Assembly (NCBI GenBank): GCA_964435115.1
Contig: CAYSYM010000005.1
Location: 68,224 to 92,223 of the forward strand
Source: an uncultured Chloroflexota bacterium
GTDB taxonomy: Bacteria; Chloroflexota; UBA6077; CF-72
DNA length: 24,000 bases
Reading direction: 5' to 3'
In this document: in pieces, positions 6,011 through 17,603 of the stretch
Layout: each line of letters starts with the position of its first letter
Position numbering within the stretch: position 1 is the first letter of the stretch
Translations under genes and position numbers: made by a program
The notes under the pieces: generated by a model
The model's input: only the letters and a program-made list of their open reading frames with translations
Told to the model about the DNA's origin: nothing
The model's database searches: none

Positions 6011-7219
6011 ATGCAGCTCCCAACGCCGTTCACCCTCGCGCGCCGCGTCGCCGTCGTCATCGCCGTGGCCGCGTTCGCCGCCGCGTGCGCGCCGGCCGCG
6101 CAGCCGACGCCGACCACGGCGCCGGCCAAGCCGACCGAGGCGCCCAAGCCCACCGTGGCGGCCTCGCCCGCCGCGGCGCCGAGCCCCAGCCCGGCCGCCA
6201 AGCCGGCCGCGGCCGCCAGCCCGGCCGCGGGGGCCCCGGGCCCCGTGGCGACCAAGCCCGCGCAGAACCCCACCGACAAGCTCAGCCTGGTCTACGGCAG
6301 CCCGGTGACCCCGCCCAGCCTGGTCCACATGCCGCCGTACATCGCCCAGGCGATGGGCTTCTTCGACGAAGTCGGCTTGAACGTGGAGATCAAGTCCTTT
6401 GAAGGCGGCGTCGGGGCGCTGCGCGGTGGCATCTCGGGCGGCCTGGACATCGTCGGCACCAGCTCCGACCCGCTCTTCGCCGCCATCCAGCAGGGCGCGC
6501 CGGTCAAGGCCATCGGCACCTACGCGCCCAAGCTGAGCGTCGTCATGATGGCCAGGCCGGACATCAAGACGCCCCAGGACCTGAAGGGTCGCAAGCTGGG
6601 CATCCAGGAAGTCGGGGGCTTCAACGACGTCATGTCGCGCCTGGTGCTGCAGAGCGCCGGGATCTCGCCCAACGACGTGCAGTTCGTCACCGTGGCGACC
6701 GCCAACCGGGTGTCCTCGATGGTCCAGGGCCAGACCGAGGCGACCGTGCTGCACGCCGACCAGTACTACGCCGCGCTGGCCGCCGACCCCAACTTCAACG
6801 TCATGGCCCGCCTGTGGGAGGTCGTGCCGGACTGGTGGTACTCGGCGTTCGTCGCGTCGGACGACGTCATCAAGAACAAGCGCGAAGCGTTGGTCCGCTT
6901 CATGACGGCGGTCGTCAAGGCGCAGCGCTTCATGTACACGAACCCCGAGGAGACGAAGCGCATCGCGGTCGAGGAGACGAAGCGCAAGCCGGACGAGATC
7001 GAGAAGGCCTACGCCGACCTGGTCCGGGGCGGCATCTGGAGCGTCAACGACGGCATGCCGCGCAACATGGTCGAGTACACCGTCCGCAAGGAGATCGAGG
7101 TCGGCATCGTCCGGCCGGACAACCCGCCGACCTACGAGCAGATCGTGGACAAGTCGATCATCGACGAGGCCGTCAGGCGCAACGGTGGCGCCTGGACGGG
7201 CGACCCGCGCTGGTACTAG
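6011..7219 (+). CDS. ABC transporter substrate-binding lipoprotein, NMT1/THI5-like (NitT/TauT family)
   Basis: AAGGAG lies 8 nt upstream of ATG 6011. Signal peptide with lipobox (FAAAC) is followed by a ~65-aa Pro/Ala/Thr tether. The NMT1-like domain follows (LSLVYGSPVTPPSLVHMPPYIAQAMGFFDEVGLNVEIKSFEGG...). Confidence 0.85.
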   Translation: MQLPTPFTLARRVAVVIAVAAFAAACAPAAQPTPTTAPAKPTEAPKPTVAASPAAAPSPSPAAKPAAAASPAAGAPGPVATKPAQNPTDKLSLVYGSPVTPPSLVHMPPYIAQAMGFFDEVGLNVEIKSFEGGVGALRGGISGGLDIVGTSSDPLFAAIQQGAPVKAIGTYAPKLSVVMMARPDIKTPQDLKGRKLGIQEVGGFNDVMSRLVLQSAGISPNDVQFVTVATANRVSSMVQGQTEATVLHADQYYAALAADPNFNVMARLWEVVPDWWYSAFVASDDVIKNKREALVRFMTAVVKAQRFMYTNPEETKRIAVEETKRKPDEIEKAYADLVRGGIWSVNDGMPRNMVEYTVRKEIEVGIVRPDNPPTYEQIVDKSIIDEAVRRNGGAWTGDPRWY

Positions 7220-7224
7220 CGCGG

Positions 7225-7266
7225 GTGTCAGGCGTCAGGTATCGGGTATCGGGTGTTGGGTGGTGG
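7225..7266 (+). repeat. tandem heptamer array A (6 degenerate GTGTCGG units, 42 bp)
   Basis: Read directly: GTGTCAG GCGTCAG GTATCGG GTATCGG GTGTTGG GTGGTGG. It starts 6 nt after the SBP stop and runs into GGAGGGG (7267-7273), which serves as SD for GTG 7283. Confidence 0.9.
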
Positions 7267-7282
7267 GGAGGGGGTGCCGGCC

Positions 7283-8161
7283 GTGGCGGGTGTGATCAAC
7301 GGTGACCGGCGGGTGTCGGCGGGCACGTCGCCCTCCGACACCCGGCCCCCGGCCCCTGGCGCCCAGCCCGGGCCGCCGCGGTTGGAGGCCGAGCCGAAGA
7401 TTCGCGTCGAGCGGGCGACACGGACCTTCGTAGACGGCGGGGTCGTCGCCTTCGAGGAGCTCGACCTCGACGTACGCCCCAATGAGACGCTGTGCATCGT
7501 CGGCCCGTCGGGCTGCGGGAAGACCACCCTGCTGCGCAGCCTGGCCGGACTCCTCCCGCTGACGGACGGGCGCGTGCTGCTGGATGGCAAGCCGGTCGCC
7601 AGCCCCACACCCAGCGTGGTGATGGTCTTCCAGCACTTCGGCCTGTTCCCCTGGAAGACGGTGTGGGAGAACGTGACCTACGGCCTGAAGCTGCGGGGCG
7701 TGCCACGCAGCGAGTGGCAGCCGCGAGTGGCCCCGTACCTGGAGCTGGTCGGCCTGGCCGGCTTCGAGGCCATGTACCCCTACCAGCTCTCGGGCGGCAT
7801 GCAGCAGCGCTGCGGCCTGGTGCGCGCCCTGGCGGTCAACCCGGACGTGCTCCTCATGGACGAGCCGTTTGCCGCGCTGGACGCGCAGACGCGCGAGCTG
7901 CTGCAGGAGGAGCTACTGCGCATCCTCGAGCGCGAGCGGAAGACGATGGTGTTCATCACCCACAGCATCGACGAGGCGATCATGCTGGGCGACCGGATCG
8001 TGGTGATGTCCGCGCGGCCGGGCCGAGTGCGCGAGCTGATCGAGGTCGGCCTGCCGCGGCCGCGGAACCTGGAAGCGGTCCGGGCGACCGGCCGCTACGC
8101 CGAGCTGCGGGTCCACATCTGGGAGGAGCTGCGGCCGCAAGCCGCGGCGGCGGTGAGGTGA
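7283..8161 (+). CDS. ABC transporter ATP-binding protein (NitT/TauT family)
   Basis: Walker A GPSGCGKTT, signature LSGGMQQR, Walker B LLMDEPF, H-loop ITHSIDE. GTG 7283 sits 9-11 nt after GGAGGGG. Alternatives are GTG 7253 (inside the repeat), GTG 7292 and TTG 7382. The first ~35 residues are Pro-rich and non-conserved. Confidence 0.85.
   Translation: MAGVINGDRRVSAGTSPSDTRPPAPGAQPGPPRLEAEPKIRVERATRTFVDGGVVAFEELDLDVRPNETLCIVGPSGCGKTTLLRSLAGLLPLTDGRVLLDGKPVASPTPSVVMVFQHFGLFPWKTVWENVTYGLKLRGVPRSEWQPRVAPYLELVGLAGFEAMYPYQLSGGMQQRCGLVRALAVNPDVLLMDEPFAALDAQTRELLQEELLRILERERKTMVFITHSIDEAIMLGDRIVVMSARPGRVRELIEVGLPRPRNLEAVRATGRYAELRVHIWEELRPQAAAAVR
7311..7343. repeat. 9-bp perfect inverted repeat built from the heptamer motif
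   Basis: GGGTGTCGG (7311-7319) and CCGACACCC (7335-7343) are separated by 15 nt, 45 nt downstream of array A, within the 5' end of the ATPase ORF as called. Confidence 0.8.
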
Positions 8162-12591: not shown

Positions 12592-13542
12592 ATGCCCCTA
12601 GATCCCCAGGCTGAGCGGTTCATCGCGGAGGCGGTCGCGGCCGGCGCGCGGCCCACCCACACGCTCTCCATCGCCGAGGCGCGCCAGGCGCTGCGCACGC
12701 GCCACGAGCAGGGTGGCGGCACGCCGCCGGCGATCGCCTCGGTCGTGGACCGCCAGGTCCCGGGGCCGGCCGGGTCGATCCGGGTACGGGTCTACACGCC
12801 GTTCGGTAGCGGCCCGTTTCCCGTGCTGGTCTACTTGCATGGTGGCGGCTGGCTGCGCGGCGACCTGGAGACGCACGACCGCCTGTGCCGCTACCTGGCC
12901 GACGGCGCCGCCTGCCTGGTGGTGTCGGTCGACTACCGCCTGGCGCCCGAGCACACGTTCCCGGCCCCGGTCGAGGACACTATGGCCGCCACCGAGTGGG
13001 TGGCCGCCCACGCCGCGGAGATCGGCGCTGATCCGACGCGGATCGCCGTCGGCGGCGACAGCGCGGGCGGCAACCTCGCCGCGGTCGTGGCGCTGCTGGC
13101 GCGCGAGCGAGGCCGGCCGCGGCTCGTCTTCCAGCTCCTCGTCTACCCCGTCACCAGCTACGCCTTCGACACCCCGTCCTACCACGAGAACGCCACCGGC
13201 TACGTGCTGACGAAGGCGGACATGGAGTGGTACTGGCACCACTACCTGCCCGACGCCGCCGCCGGGCGCGACGTGCGTGCCTCCCCGCTCCTGGCGGCGG
13301 ACCTCGGCCACCTCCCACCGGCGCTGGTGATCACCGCCGAGTACGACCCGCTGCGCGACGAGGGCGAGGCGTACGCCGCGCGACTCCGCGAGGCGGGTGT
13401 GCCGGCGACCACGCGTCGCTACCCTGGCATGATCCACGGCTTCTTCGCGCTCCCCGGTATCTTCGACCAGGGCCAGCGCGCGATTGACGAGGCGACCGCG
13501 GTCCTGCGCGCCAGCTTCACGCAGGTGGCCGCTCTTCCCTGA
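12592..13542 (+). CDS. alpha/beta hydrolase, hormone-sensitive-lipase-like (family IV) esterase
   Basis: GGAGG lies 5 nt upstream of ATG 12592. Oxyanion motif HGGGW, nucleophile elbow GDSAGG, acid DPLRDEG and His in MIHGF are in canonical order. Confidence 0.85.
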   Translation: MPLDPQAERFIAEAVAAGARPTHTLSIAEARQALRTRHEQGGGTPPAIASVVDRQVPGPAGSIRVRVYTPFGSGPFPVLVYLHGGGWLRGDLETHDRLCRYLADGAACLVVSVDYRLAPEHTFPAPVEDTMAATEWVAAHAAEIGADPTRIAVGGDSAGGNLAAVVALLARERGRPRLVFQLLVYPVTSYAFDTPSYHENATGYVLTKADMEWYWHHYLPDAAAGRDVRASPLLAADLGHLPPALVITAEYDPLRDEGEAYAARLREAGVPATTRRYPGMIHGFFALPGIFDQGQRAIDEATAVLRASFTQVAALP

Positions 13543-13562
13543 CCCACGGAGGTTCGCACCTG

Positions 13563-14555
13563 ATGGCTGTCACTACCCCCACCCCTGCGGCTGTCGTGCA
13601 GCCGACTCCCGACGAGCTGCAGGAGGCACTGCGGCTCATGCTCACCATCCGCCGGTTCGACGAGCAGGCGCTGGCGCTGTACCGGGCGGGCGAGATGCGC
13701 GGGACCACCCACCCGTACATCGGCATGGAAGCGGTGGGCGTGGGCGTGGTGGCGGCCCTCCGTCCAGACGACTACGTCACGAGCACCCATCGCGGTCACG
13801 GCCACACCATCGCCAAGGGCGGCGACATCAGGAAGATGATGGCCGAGCTGCTGGGCAAGGCGACCGGCTACTCGGGCGGGAAAGGCGGCAGCATGCACGT
13901 AGCCGACATGGACAAGCACATGCTGGGCGCCAACGGCATCGTCGGCGGCGGCATGGGGTTGGCCACAGGCGCCGCGCTGACCGCCAGGCTCCAGGGCGCC
14001 GACTCGGTCGCCGTGTGCTTCTTCGGCGACGGCGCGCTCAACCAGGGCATCCTGCACGAGACGAGCAACCTGGCGGCGATCTGGAAGCTGCCGGTCCTGT
14101 TCGTGTGTGAGAACAACCAATACGCCATGTCCACCCGGGCCGAGTGGAGCATAGCCGGCGGCGATCCGGCCGGGCGGGCCGCGGCCTACGGGCTGCCGGG
14201 CGTCACGGTCGACGGCATGGACTTCTTTGCGGTCCACGAGGCTGCCCACCGGCTCGTCGAACGGGCGCGGCGCGGCGAGGGGCCAGCGTACCTGGTCTGT
14301 AACACCTACCGCTACTATGGCCACCACGCCGGCGACCCGCTGAACTACCGGGGGAAGGATGAGGTGGACCGCTGGCGCGAGCAGGACCCGATTGCACGCC
14401 TGCAGCGGGCGCTCATCGAGCGCGGGGTGCTCAGCGCCGGCGAGGCGGCCGAGCTGGAGCAGCGCGTCGCAGCCGAGGTCGAAGCGGCGGTCGCGTTTGC
14501 CAAGGCCAGCCCGGAGCCGACGGTCGACCAACTGATGACCGACATCTACGCGTAG
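13563..14555 (+). CDS. 2-oxoacid (pyruvate/acetoin-type) dehydrogenase E1 component, alpha subunit (TPP-dependent)
   Basis: GGAGG lies 10 nt upstream of the start. Motifs: HRGHGHTIAKG, GGKGGSMH, and the TPP-binding GDGALNQG...VCENNQYAMST. Confidence 0.9.
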   Translation: MAVTTPTPAAVVQPTPDELQEALRLMLTIRRFDEQALALYRAGEMRGTTHPYIGMEAVGVGVVAALRPDDYVTSTHRGHGHTIAKGGDIRKMMAELLGKATGYSGGKGGSMHVADMDKHMLGANGIVGGGMGLATGAALTARLQGADSVAVCFFGDGALNQGILHETSNLAAIWKLPVLFVCENNQYAMSTRAEWSIAGGDPAGRAAAYGLPGVTVDGMDFFAVHEAAHRLVERARRGEGPAYLVCNTYRYYGHHAGDPLNYRGKDEVDRWREQDPIARLQRALIERGVLSAGEAAELEQRVAAEVEAAVAFAKASPEPTVDQLMTDIYA

Positions 14556-14579
14556 GTGTCGGGTGTCGGGTGTCGGGTG
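14556..14579 (+). repeat. tandem heptamer array B (3 perfect GTGTCGG + GTG)
   Basis: Begins at the base immediately after the E1alpha stop TAG (14553-14555). Runs into GAGGAG (14579-14584), the SD of the four-helix-bundle gene. Confidence 0.95.
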
Positions 14580-14593
14580 AGGAGATGCAGACG

Positions 14594-15001
14594 ATGACGG
14601 CGATGGCTGGCTACCGAGAGCTCCGGGTCTGGCAGGCAGCGATGGACCTGGTGGAGGGCGTCTACCGGCACACGCAGACCTTCCCGAAGCAGGAGGTCTA
14701 CGGACTGGCCGCGCAGCTTCAGCGGGCGGCGGTTTCTATCCCGGCCAACGTCGCGGAAGGACACGTCCGCGACCACCTCAAGGAGTACTTGCGGCACATC
14801 TCGGTGGCGCAGGGCTCGCTGGCCGAGCTCGAGACACAGCTCGAGATCGCCCGGCGACTGGGCTACGTCGAGCGAGCCGCCCATCGAGAGCTCCTCGAGC
14901 AGACGGCTTCCATCGGCAAGCAGCTCTATGCGCTGCGCAACTCTCTCGGCAAGAAGCTCAACACTGAATCGACGGCGCACGTGGAGCCCTCATGGCCGTA
15001 G
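14594..15001 (+). CDS. four helix bundle protein (23S rRNA intervening-sequence protein / S23p family, TIGR02436-like)
   Basis: Family-typical sequence [18 protein letters not shown]...[27 protein letters not shown]...[18 protein letters not shown]. In-frame starts are GTG 14570 and ATG 14585/14594/14603. ATG 14594 has the best spacing (9 nt) from GAGGAG. Stop TAG 14999-15001 overlaps the E1beta ATG 14992. Confidence 0.85.
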
Positions 15002-16026
15002 CAACTGCCCCCGACGCCCGACACCCGACACCCGACACCCGACACCTGACCTACGCTGAGGCGCTGAACGAGGCGCTGCGCGAGGAGATGCGCCGCGATC
15101 CCACCGTCTTCGTCCTGGGCGAGGACGTGGCCATCTGGGGCGGCGGCGGCATCTTCGGCGTCACCAAGGGGCTGGTGGACGAGTTCGGCCCCGAGCGGGT
15201 GCGGGACACGCCCATCTCTGAGGAGGCGATCGCCGCGGTCGCCATCGGCGCGGCGGCGACCGGCAGTCGGCCGGTGGCGGAGATCATGTACGTGGACTTC
15301 ATCGGCCTGGCGATGGAGCCGATCGTCAACCAGGCCGCCAAGCTGCGCTACATGTTCGGCGGCAAGGCGAAGGTACCGATGGTGCTCCGCGCCCAGGAGG
15401 GCGCCGGCCGCGGCAACGCCGCCCAGCACAGCCAGAGCCTGGAGGCGTGGTTCTGCCACATCCCCGGCCTCAAGGTGGTCACGCCCAGCACCCCCTACGA
15501 CGCCAAGGGGCTGCTCAAGACCGCCGTCCGCGACGACAACCCGGTCATCTTCCTCGAGCACAAGGCGCTCTACTTCACCAAGGGGTCGGTGCCCACGGAG
15601 GAGTACACGCTCCCGCTCGGGCTGGCCGACGTGAAGCGCGAGGGCCGGCACGTCACCGTCGTCGGCGTCCACACCATGGTGGGCAAGGCGCTCCAGGCGG
15701 CCGAGCGGCTCGCCGCGGAGGGCATCGAGCTGGAGGTGATCGACCCGCGCTCCCTGGTGCCGCTGGACGAGGAGACGATTGTCAGCTCGGTCAGGAAGAC
15801 GGGCCGGCTGATCGTGAGCCACGAGGCGTACACGCGGGGCGGCTACGGCGGCGAGGTCATCGCCCGCGTCGTCGAGTCCGCCTTCGACTACCTGGACGCG
15901 CCGCCCGTGCGCGTGTGCGCCCGGGACGTGCCCGTGCCCTACAGTGCCGTACTGGAGACGGCGGCCCTGCCGCAGGTCGACGACCTCGTCGCCGCGGCCC
16001 GGGCGCTGGTGGGGAAGGAGCTGTAG
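14992..16026 (+). CDS. 2-oxoacid dehydrogenase E1 component, beta subunit
   Basis: Conserved body [28 protein letters not shown]... with transketolase-like pyrimidine-binding and C-terminal domains. The only canonical start upstream of the conserved region is ATG 14992 (GGAG 5 nt upstream). The first ~18 codons ([18 protein letters not shown]) are encoded by the cassette end and heptamer array C. Confidence 0.85.
15011..15052 (-). repeat. tandem heptamer array C (CCGACAC orientation on + strand; 6 units, 42 bp, 4 perfect)
   Basis: Read directly: CCGACGC CCGACAC CCGACAC CCGACAC CCGACAC CTGACCT. It is the inverse orientation of arrays A and B and lies inside the E1beta ORF, translated as [14 protein letters not shown]. 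Confidence 0.95.
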
Positions 16027-16031
16027 CGTCC

Positions 16032-17603
16032 ATGGCGACGCCGGTGACGATGCCGATGCTCGGGCTGACGATGGAGGAGGGCACGGTTGCGCAGTGGCTG
16101 AAGGGCGAGGGCGAGGCGGTGCGGAAGGACGAGCCGCTCCTCACCGTCGAGATCGACAAGGGCACGGTCGAGGTGCCCGCGCCGGCGAGCGGCGTGCTGC
16201 GGCGGATCGTCGTCCAGCCCGGCCAGACGGTGCCGATCAAGACGCTCATCGCGGAGATCGCCGCGCCCGGCGAGGCGGGTGAAGGGGCGCCCGCGGGCCC
16301 GGCGTCTGTTCTGCAGCAGACGGCTCCGGCCGGGGTGGCCCCGGCGCCAGCGGTCCCGCCCGACACCGGCGCTCCGCCGAGCCCGGCGCAGGTGGCCGCC
16401 GCCACGGTCGCCTCCGCCCCGCCAGCCGCCACCGTGGCCCCGACACCCGATACCCGATACCCGGCACCCGAGACCCGGCTGTTCGCGTCGCCGCGGGCGC
16501 GCGGGCGCGCCGGCGCGCTGGGGATCGAGCTGGCGCTGGTCCAGGGGACCGGCCCGCGCGGACGCATCGTCGAGGAGGATGTGCTCGCCTTCGCCCAGGC
16601 GGCCCCGGCTCAGCCAGTGGGCCAGAGCCTGACGGCACGATTGGGCGCAGGTGGGGCCCACTTGCCGAGCGCCCTCGGGAGTCAGCGCGTAGCGCCTGGC
16701 GCCGAGCCGTCGCGGGTCCCGGCGACGCCGCTCGCCCGACGGATGGCGCTGGAGCACGGGGTGGCGTTGAGCGCGGTCCAGGGCACCGGTCCGGGTGGGC
16801 GCGTCACCCACGAGGACGTGCTGCGCGCGGCTGAGGCGCGCCTGGCGGGCACGGGCGCCGAGGCGGGGGCCACGGCCCCTGCGCCGGCACCCGAGACCCT
16901 GCACCCGGTCCCTGTCGAGCCGCTCAGCCGCCTGCGGCGGATCACCGCCGAGCGCATGGCCGCCTCGGCGCGCAGCGTGGCCCGGGTCACGCTGTTCCTC
17001 GAGGCGGACCTGACCGAGGCGGCCCGGTTCCGGCGCCAGCTCGCCCCCGAGCTCGCGCGGCTCGGCGTGGCGAAGCTGCCGTGGGACGCGCTCTTCGCCA
17101 AGGCGGCCGGCCTGGCGCTGGCCGAGCACCCGGGCGTGAACGCCCAGTGGGTCGACGGCCAGGGGCTGCGCCGGCTCGCCACGGTCAACGTGGGGGTGGC
17201 GGTGGCGCTGGAGCCCGAGGGGCTCGTGGTGCCGGTGCTGCGCCAGGCCGACACGCGGTCGCTGCGCGAGCTGGCGGCTGACGTCCTGGCGCTGGCGGAC
17301 CGGGCGCGGCACAATCGCCTGCGCCCGGGCGAGATGCAGGGGGCGACCTTCACCATCACCAACCTCGGCCAGTACCGCGTCGACGGCTTCACGCCGATCG
17401 TGAATCCGCCTGAGACGGCCATCCTGGGGGTCGGGCGCATCGCCGACAAGCCTGCCGTCGTCGACGGCCAGCTCCAGGTCCGCACCCAGTGCACGCTGTC
17501 GCTCAGCTTCGACCACCGGGTCGTGGACGGCGCGCCCGCCGCCGCCTTCCTCGCGCGCCTGGCCGAGCTGCTCGAGCGGCCGTACGCGCTCCTGGGGCTC
17601 TGA
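16032..17603 (+). CDS. 2-oxoacid dehydrogenase E2 (dihydrolipoamide acyltransferase)
   Basis: ATG 16032 follows AAGGAG. Lipoyl domain with TVEIDKGTVEVPAP (Lys codon 16158-16160). Two peripheral-subunit-binding-like segments. Catalytic domain ends with SLSFDHRVVDGA. The 718-aa track ORF from 15447 is an upstream out-of-gene extension. Confidence 0.9.
   Translation: MATPVTMPMLGLTMEEGTVAQWLKGEGEAVRKDEPLLTVEIDKGTVEVPAPASGVLRRIVVQPGQTVPIKTLIAEIAAPGEAGEGAPAGPASVLQQTAPAGVAPAPAVPPDTGAPPSPAQVAAATVASAPPAATVAPTPDTRYPAPETRLFASPRARGRAGALGIELALVQGTGPRGRIVEEDVLAFAQAAPAQPVGQSLTARLGAGGAHLPSALGSQRVAPGAEPSRVPATPLARRMALEHGVALSAVQGTGPGGRVTHEDVLRAAEARLAGTGAEAGATAPAPAPETLHPVPVEPLSRLRRITAERMAASARSVARVTLFLEADLTEAARFRRQLAPELARLGVAKLPWDALFAKAAGLALAEHPGVNAQWVDGQGLRRLATVNVGVAVALEPEGLVVPVLRQADTRSLRELAADVLALADRARHNRLRPGEMQGATFTITNLGQYRVDGFTPIVNPPETAILGVGRIADKPAVVDGQLQVRTQCTLSLSFDHRVVDGAPAAAFLARLAELLERPYALLGL
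16440..16481 (-). repeat. tandem heptamer array D (CCGACAC orientation; 6 degenerate units, 42 bp) inside the E2 linker
   Basis: Read directly: CCGACAC CCGATAC CCGATAC CCGGCAC CCGAGAC CCGGCTG. It is in frame and translated as PTPDTRYPAPETRL. Confidence 0.9.

Follow-up and report, generated by a model that had tools for sequence, protein, structure and literature searches.

A four-helix-bundle protein gene between inverted heptamer arrays at an E1alpha-E1beta junction of a Chloroflexota genome

Three bodies of literature have run separately for 10 to 35 years: one on 23S rRNA intervening sequences (IVSs) with an S23p open reading frame (ORF) (1993 on), one on the cyanobacterial STRR repeats (1990 on) and one on the abundant G-rich heptamers of Xanthomonas and Nostoc (2015); none of them has supplied a mechanism. 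The TIGR02436 family has thousands of members and is annotated only as 'four helix bundle protein'. In 1997 Vioque reportedly described STRR in RNase P RNA as well. In this work we analyzed a 24,000-nt stretch of DNA from an uncultured Chloroflexota bacterium (contig CAYSYM010000005.1, positions 68,224 to 92,223; hereafter the window, to which the coordinates refer). In the window a gene for a PF05635/TIGR02436 protein (hereafter IVP) lies between inverted heptamer arrays at the junction of the E1alpha and E1beta genes of a 2-oxoacid dehydrogenase operon. The genome carrying the window is designated G000.

The 23S rRNA IVS of Coxiella contains tandem GACAGAT heptamers, whose number varies among strains, in the stem region cleaved by RNase III (PMC4990558). 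STRR (short tandemly repeated repetitive) heptamers occur in heterocystous cyanobacteria, where they form hairpins of 7-bp repeats located between cistrons, e.g., hupS and hupL, and their function is unknown (PMC2670836). In X. campestris there are 186 GGGAATC sites, with 70 convergent pairs, between aligned ORFs and less than 50 bp from stop codons (PMC4692102), and Nostoc has GGGGA(C/T)T heptamer sites (Rehm et al., 2015, PMC4692102); S23p and four-helix-bundle genes are not mentioned in that paper (PMC4692102). A preliminary description of the window, made from the sequence alone, had stated that no such element was described. The statement is too broad given the published Coxiella IVS, STRR and Xanthomonas GGGAATC repeats. 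In the open-access library searched, we found no paper linking heptamer arrays to PF05635 genes generally, which is not proof of novelty.

The locus is an inserted member of a widespread class, in which an IVP gene lies between convergent arrays running from G-rich to C-rich, co-directional with its host genes at a cistron boundary. Such arrays also exist without the gene; array families burst in particular genomes, and the bursts co-occur with cognate IVP genes. In our favored reading, which we consider probable on balance, the segment is a selfish cassette of the IVS type, of a kind that is widespread, and the spread of heptamer arrays is linked to its protein. Taken by itself, the locus represents an mRNA-borne element of the IVS type; of greater interest is the general link to heptamer repeats.

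The insertion at the E1alpha-E1beta junction

Twenty orthologous E1alpha-E1beta junctions in relatives (E1beta identity 74-89%) were compared with that of the window. None of the 20 carried a PF05635 gene, and the window IVP gene is therefore an insertion; seven of the junctions were compact stop/start overlaps, several of them GCATGA. The preliminary description had proposed this comparison and had suggested an IVS-like, possibly mobile cassette in a protein-coding operon, a suggestion supported by the IVP-free junctions and by the filled and empty sites among congeners described below. Two outcomes named there as fatal to the idea, the same gene at this place without arrays in all relatives and a lack of such arrays at every other four-helix-bundle gene of the genome, did not occur. 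The features of the locus are as follows:

13563..14555, + strand: E1 alpha subunit gene of a 2-oxoacid dehydrogenase complex (PF00676 E1_dh, 6.4e-91)
14554..14579, + strand: left arm, a G-rich heptamer array, GTGTCGG x3.6 (inverted-repeat search; Tandem Repeats Finder (TRF), period 7)
14594..15001, + strand: IVP gene, four-helix-bundle '23S rRNA IVS protein' of 135 aa (PF05635, 1.5e-35)
14992..16026, + strand: E1 beta subunit gene (PF02779 and PF02780)
15010..15050, + strand: right array of C-rich heptamers, CCCGACA x5.9 (TRF; the complementary arm is 15022-15047)

The encoded protein matched PF05635 over positions 1-105 of 106 (122 bits, cut-off 33.8) and TIGR02436 at 119 bits (cut-off 24), in agreement with the TIGR02436-like ORF first reported. 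All 10 invariant columns of an alignment of IVP proteins (A1) are present in the window protein, the core being W, Y, Q..R, S.P.N.AEG and GS..E. The nearest solved homologue is XCC0516 (PDB 2GSC, 1e-35), which was deposited with five chains; Xanthomonas S23p has been described as a homopentamer (PMC4990558). A search of a phage collection gave no IVP homologue. Most close homologues of the window IVP have been recorded on just one to three contigs, often shorter than 3 kb. Such few and short contigs fit the breaking of short-read assemblies by flanking arrays, and the family together with its arrays may be under-represented in metagenome-assembled genomes.

The E1alpha gene ends with TAG at 14553-14555, and GTGTCGG x3 + GTG follows directly from 14556. 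The perfect 24-nt inverted arrays noted earlier behind this stop are contained in a 26-nt inverted repeat (14554-14579 / 15022-15047) that is 100% complementary, with 442 nt between the arms. TRF found period 7 in both arrays, with 3.6 copies on the left (14555-14579) and 5.9 on the right (15010-15050). In the register of the family, the left array reads TAGGTGT followed by CGGGTGT units, the E1alpha stop TAG completing the TAGGTGT. The 14-mer GTGTCGGGTGTCGG occurs 14 times in the window with up to 2 mismatches vs. 0.64 times expected from shuffles. The open frame of the IVP gene begins at GTG 14570; ATG 14594 is the likely start codon, and AGGAG is located at 14581-14585.

The IVP stop codon TAG (14999-15001) overlaps codons 2-3 of E1beta (ATGGCCGTAG). 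The E1beta start ATG 14992 (MAVATAP) lies inside the loop, which also carries the E1beta ribosome-binding site and the first 10 codons; codons 7-19 are encoded by the right array, ahead of the conserved segment. The N-terminus M-A-V-A-x-A/P-P was found in 13 relatives (L008-L019, L022) and is conserved across the order, and E1beta of relatives has a variable tail of 3 to ∼25 residues after the start, followed by (I/L/M)TYAEALNEA. The preliminary description had placed the cassette exactly between E1alpha and E1beta, with an interior carrying only the IVP ORF. Neither point holds: the cassette is not cleanly wedged between the genes, because the native E1beta start is inside the loop and the right array is in the E1beta coding tail.

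The same topology, with the right array downstream of the native E1beta start, was seen at the junction of G005, a genome of the same family: its TAG is followed by ∼4 GTGTTGG-type units, ∼50 nt with the native E1beta ATG, and then CCCAACA x4 in the tail. It recurs in the window at 7217/7229-7369. Three other junctions (L012, L013 and L018) have hairpins of other heptamers in the E1alpha-E1beta spacer; L013 is from the unpublished genome G038, and no conclusion rests on it. We rejected a simple one-piece insertion model, since the native E1beta start separates the IVP gene from the right arm. Long staggered cuts, recombination of two elements and inversion were also considered, and none of them yields the window topology.

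An independent Logan run assembly of the same sample gave one contig that covers 13900-15700 with zero differences. No credible empty-site variant was found among the contigs of runs holding the window; 'skips' with sides of 24-27 nt in run contigs probably come from paralogues. Only DNA runs of one mine-drainage sample are listed with the window sequence, and no RNA runs. We found no promoter-like or terminator-like sites in 13400-16200.

Three further features of the window carry related arrays or complete the operon:

16032..17603, + strand: E2 acyltransferase gene of the same operon (Biotin_lipoyl, two E3_binding and 2-oxoacid_dh domains)
16439..16477, + strand: solo array in E2, CCCGACA/CCCGATA, 5.6 copies, in frame in the linker (TRF)
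7217/7229..7369, + strand: gene-less inverted pair of the family of the E1-junction heptamer (TRF and heptamer pattern search)

The E2 array lies between the lipoyl and E3-binding domains and reads in frame as PTPDTRYPAPETR. Gain or loss of one 7-nt unit in the E2-linker and E1beta-tail arrays would shift the frame, which makes these arrays potential phase-variation sites in core metabolic genes. In the gene-less pair, the G-rich array directly follows the stop codon of an NMT1-like binding-protein gene, and its C-rich partner, an imperfect match, is found in the N-terminal tail of the ABC ATPase gene that comes next, as in the E1 junction. G000 has at least 8 E1beta-like genes at E <= 1e-60 (six listed, 52-100% identity, <=58% excluding the window copy), so that impairment of the operon by the cassette may be buffered.

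Cassettes and solo arrays in other genomes

The preliminary description had proposed a search for inverted arrays beside further four-helix-bundle genes, and they were found at about three quarters of the loci sampled across phyla and in G000 itself, whose second PF05635 gene (contig C3) lies between inverted arrays of an AT-rich heptamer unrelated to that of the window. Among 40 relatives, ∼20 of 27 PF05635 loci had flanking inverted heptamer arrays, and the unit differed from locus to locus. Nine more loci all had inverted flanking repeats, eight of them strong (score 18-34) and one weak (score 10). From species-representative genomes 80 loci were fetched, of which 74 were scorable, and 135 pseudo-genes displaced within the same loci served as controls. 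The sample covered Chloroflexota, Acidobacteriota, Pseudomonadota, Planctomycetota, Bacteroidota, Bacillota, Cyanobacteria, Nitrospirota, the Candidate Phyla Radiation and two Archaea. An inverted-repeat score of at least 14 was reached by 55 of the 74 loci vs. 0 of the 135 controls. The window locus scored 26, and the highest score of a control was 12 (n = 135, one scoring scheme).

The best tandem period of the flanking arrays was 7 in 70 of 80 (∼88%) and 8 in a few. After rotation of 83 units to a common register, the consensus was B-A-G-K-N-R-Y, with A in 77% and G in 22% at position 2 and G in 93% at position 3; its information content was 3.78 bits compared with 2.85 ± 0.12 bits for shuffled units. 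Arm polarity is fixed, the upstream arm having 39.5% G and 14% C and the downstream arm being its mirror (40% C). A same-strand ORF of at least 80 codons ended within -30 to +8 nt of the left arm in 64 of the 83 cassettes, compared with 9 of 83 displaced controls. The stop codon of this upstream host gene was most commonly TAG (30 of 64), which in many cases also serves as the B-A-G of the first heptamer, and the genes flanking the cassettes are unrelated host genes. Arrays built of TAG units would stop all three frames within 21 nt. Two simple rules for the arrays were rejected: that they are stop-free in all frames (many units contain TAG or give TGA in the right arm), and that their length is fixed at ∼5 units, in keeping with a pentamer (it varies between 2 and ∼35 units).

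The heptamer is common (with at most 1 mismatch) to 35% of IVP pairs with more than 65% identity vs. 1-3% of pairs below 55% identity. The variable unit positions differ between the orthologous cassettes that G005 and G006 carry at one site, yet each cassette is self-complementary, indicating that the two arms evolve in concert. That site is empty in four congeners, where 4 to 16 nt separate the flanking matches, which reach one stop codon and the next start codon. Such precise filled and empty sites among congeners point to mobility.

Solo elements of G005 are hairpins of ∼100-130 nt composed of a GC-rich leader-like segment, (GGTGTTG)n, a non-conserved loop and (CACCCAT)n; the leader-like segment was clearly similar in ∼5 of the 10 loci examined. 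All nine hairpins with two recognizable arms among these loci (L155-L164) are heterotypic, pairing a GGTGTTG-type arm with a GGTGATG-type arm, which leaves one T.T (or A.A) mismatch per 7-bp unit. Two lie in ribosomal-protein operons (rplW-rplB and rpsK-rpsD), at sites that are empty in congeners. At the rpsK-rpsD element, the overlapping TAATG stop/start is included in a target duplication of 13 bp, and no duplication was evident at rplW-rplB, at the L157 site or at the window locus. At one filled site, the downstream gene starts at an ATG in the last unit of the left array, so that the loop and the right array form a new N-terminal tail; the case illustrates how an array can end up in a coding tail. 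In G000, a hairpin of GAGGACT units is nested within a hairpin of GGGTATC/CACCCGA units (G000:C7:64304-64518), and a further hairpin (G000:C3:20036-20235) has a ∼130-nt loop with a 47-aa ORF that continues through the right array as far as the start of the next gene, which it overlaps.

Array families were genome-specific in the relatives searched. G000 has 30 period-7 arrays of at least 3 units, compared with none for period 8 and one for period 9, and nearly all are GGGTRTY, the heptamer family of the window arms; ∼60 further solo arrays and short hairpins of that family lie at gene boundaries of this genome, and its dispersed arrays are placed at stop/start junctions. The pattern (GGTRTYG)x3 had 94 matches in G000 (vs. 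0 control matches), 42 in G005 and 0 in eight congeners of G005. An IVP gene of G005 (on contig C374) is flanked by a heptamer of the GGGTRTY family, and its protein is the closest to the window IVP of those compared (∼two-thirds identical by eye). Bursts of other units were found for GAGAGGC in G014 (84 matches), for GAGTAGC in G037, G030 and G032, and for TAGTGGN (72 matches) and TCAGCNN (377 matches) only or nearly only in G005. In 7 of 8 cassettes tested (six and the window's own make up the seven), the unit that bursts also flanks an IVP gene in the same genome. No GAGTAGC-flanked IVP gene was identified in G037, which has the largest GAGTAGC burst.

Array load was counted with the pattern (BRGKNNY)x4 + BRG; summed counts were used because the 'control' pattern also matches heptamer arrays and is not a clean null. 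A load of at least 30 was found in 15 of 17 relatives with a strong IVP match vs. 5 of 24 without. In a phylum sample of 201 genomes, 36 of 59 IVP-positive and 9 of 142 IVP-negative genomes had a load of at least 10 (odds ratio 23); p-values for this association are overstated because related genomes are not independent.

Cassettes were also encountered in other settings. Plasmid IVP genes are dominated by Nostocales and are flanked by STRR-type arrays, e.g., (CAGGAGT)n in N. punctiforme pNPUN02. Plasmid pANA02 of Anabaena sp. 90 (L192) has an IVP cassette with (CAGGTGA)n between cas6 and cas4, which probably explains the entry 23S_rRNA_IVP in catalogues of cas-associated genes. Another lies on pNe_5 of Nostoc edaphicum (L193), between the two ribonucleotide reductase subunit genes and on the opposite strand. 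The second cassette of G000 (L001, G000:C3:126540-127060, minus strand) is located within a DUF1156 DNA-methylase gene, whose frame is open through the entire cassette (1177 aa); no interruption is seen across query residues 258-420 in the homologues from G018, G014 and G021. Read-through host frames occurred in 4 of 107 loci, always through the same alternative IVP frame, and all four hosts resemble DNA methyltransferases (NPPY and DPACGS motifs, PglX-like). Zero stops in the alternative IVP frame at 45-51% GC are unlikely to be due to chance.

Origin and role of the cassette

According to the selfish-cassette reading, the cassette would have inserted co-directionally right behind the E1alpha stop codon and would be transcribed with the host operon, as it has no promoter-like site of its own. 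The overlap of the IVP stop with the E1beta start indicates translational coupling, and the right array would be tolerated because it is stop-free, in frame and in the variable, dispensable N-terminal tail of E1beta. IVP would be a trans-acting partner that maintains or spreads its cognate arrays, a functional analogue of RAYT with its REPINs made by an unrelated protein. A causal role of IVP in the arrays, dependence of the cassette on host transcription and translational coupling, and its neutrality for the operon are what we infer from the comparisons described above.

Several observations weigh against this reading. At the window locus itself, the insertion is not a clean one-piece event, with the native E1beta start between the IVP gene and the right array, and the G005 junction has inverted arrays without an IVP gene. 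Loops of the solo hairpins are not conserved, unlike those of classical miniature inverted-repeat transposable elements, and a clear target duplication was present at only 1 of 5 solo-hairpin filled/empty sites compared. The cassette that departs from the burst rule is the second one of G000, whose AT-rich heptamer has no solo copies. The association between array load and IVP is correlative, with genomes that are not independent of each other; arrays are present in G017, G002 and G007, where no IVP was found, and G006 and G020 have IVP and almost no arrays. No enzyme-like domain was recognized in IVP, and a catalytic role is thus unsupported. PADLOC gave zero matches. No reverse transcriptase partner was found by a PF00078 search of G000, which is 90% complete.

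A different account places selection on the RNA: the long stem would be maintained for cleavage by RNase III, which would free the IVP mRNA and uncouple or down-regulate E1beta, much as an IVS is excised from rRNA. In the transcript, the arms could pair into a helix of 26-30 bp, long enough for RNase III, like the stem of the Coxiella 23S IVS. The minimum-free-energy fold of 14530-15070 (-262 kcal/mol, z = -5.1) closes the terminal stem, an outcome that matches the folding check proposed at the outset, and the arms form a perfect 26-bp helix. The homologous stem of Coxiella is cut by RNase III in vitro (PMC4990558), and the heptamer repeats of Xanthomonas are mostly transcribed (PMC4692102). 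However, a cut in the window stem would detach the E1beta start codon (14992) from the body of its ORF, and both arms would be covered by ribosomes, terminating on E1alpha on one side and translating E1beta on the other. Mismatches in 83 stems were of G.U type in 101 cases and of A.C type in 109; the lack of a G.U excess over A.C argues against RNA-level selection for pairing, as does the systematic T.T mismatch in every 7-bp unit of the G005 solo hairpins. At 14300-15300 no Rfam family matched, rRNA included, the sole match being sub-threshold and due to chance. We regard this account as rather unlikely, and the RNA helix at the window locus is considered a consequence of the DNA-level architecture and not a selected function.

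Less probable still, and in our view quite unlikely, is that the arrays serve the operon (by mRNA stabilization, translational coupling or phase variation) and that IVP is a passenger that landed in a pre-existing loop. STRR hairpins have been proposed as transcript stabilizers or translation couplers (PMC2670836), and gene-less inverted arrays of the same kind do exist, both at the G005 junction and at window 7217/7229-7369; the nested hairpins show that loops take insertions, and slippage of a unit would change the reading frame where an array lies within an ORF (E1beta tail, E2 linker). Most congeners with the same operons lack the arrays, which are therefore dispensable and recent. Moreover, the orientation of the gene and the polarity from G to C do not vary with respect to the arms, and the heptamer is inherited together with the IVP lineage, which argues for gene and arms being a single unit. 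A local expansion of a microsatellite whose complementarity is due to chance, or an artifact of assembly, might be suspected from slippage-prone heptamers in a metagenome-assembled genome. This is already contradicted by the scores of the window locus and the controls, by the same architecture in more than 80 independent loci and by the identical contig of the separate run assembly, and we hold it to be extremely improbable. We give the same very low weight to a remnant of a diversity-generating retroelement (DGR) with the protein acting as Avd. Similarity to bAvd was weak (PF22296, 1.9e-07; NF033474, 32 bits) and below the curated cut-offs (80 bits for NF033474); G000 gave no RVT_1 (PF00078) match, template and variable repeats are missing, and the neighbors of the cassettes are unrelated host genes.

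Beyond the selfish cassette at the window locus, a broader proposal can be put forward tentatively, as a possibility we would not yet call probable. TIGR02436/PF05635 would be the missing protein partner of bacterial heptamer repeats (STRR, the G-rich repeats of Xanthomonas and Nostoc, and IVS stems); each IVP lineage would specify or recognize its own B-A-G-K-N-R-Y unit and drive the de novo formation or spread of arrays at gene boundaries by a chemistry unlike that of known transposases, and rRNA IVSs would be copies that landed in rRNA. As a speculation on this chemistry, G-rich units might be added by templated synthesis to both 3' ends in association with a break, which would explain the convergent polarity, the non-conserved loops, the variable target duplications and the trapped native sequence. 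If true, the proposal would give a testable function to a very large family of uncharacterized proteins and a common cause for small 'orphan' genes wedged into conserved operons (ribosomal, cas, ribonucleotide reductase, dehydrogenase). It would likewise account for a source of in-frame low-complexity protein tails and linkers, possibly of phase variation, and for a systematic cause of breaks in metagenome assemblies.

Comparison with known systems

The DGR accessory protein Avd has a distantly related four-helix-bundle fold; the cassette differs in lacking a reverse transcriptase and template/variable repeats, and its protein scores below the Avd cut-off. The REPIN/RAYT system (PMC3116915) resembles the cassette in that a single-copy gene is flanked by inverted copies of a repeat dispersed in the genome, with genome-specific families and short hairpin-forming elements in intergenic spacers. 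RAYTs are Y1 (IS200/IS605-like) transposases, whereas the flanked gene of the window has PF05635 only, a four-helix bundle without a known catalytic motif; REPs are unique palindromes and not tandem arrays. The likeness to REPIN/RAYT is one of organization only and does not imply membership.

STRR and the Xanthomonas and Nostoc repeats are closer. Like the window family, they are dispersed tandem 7-nt units, preferentially between co-directional ORFs and less than 50 bp from stop codons, and often in convergent inverted hairpin pairs, and CGGGAAT fits the B-R-G-K-N-N-Y register. The papers on these repeats treat them as simple repeats or G-quadruplex motifs and make no mention of PF05635 genes, whereas in the window the gene is in the loop and the repeat family tracks the gene.

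The closest counterpart is the ORF-bearing 23S rRNA IVS of Leptospira and Coxiella burnetii, which has the same protein family inside and terminal inverted repeats forming a stem of ∼26-28 bp. The stem region of the Coxiella IVS consists of tandem heptamers, and the element measures ∼430-500 nt (PMC4990558). The window element differs in its location, in mRNA between two cistrons and not in helix 25/45 of 23S rRNA, and in that its excision would not be harmless with the E1beta start in the loop; cleavage by RNase III has been demonstrated for the Coxiella IVS only. Together, the data presented here indicate that rRNA intervening sequences, STRR repeats, the Xanthomonas and Nostoc heptamers and the TIGR02436 family are parts of one system, in which a small gene lies within inverted heptamer arrays and arrays of its unit without a gene burst in the same genomes.

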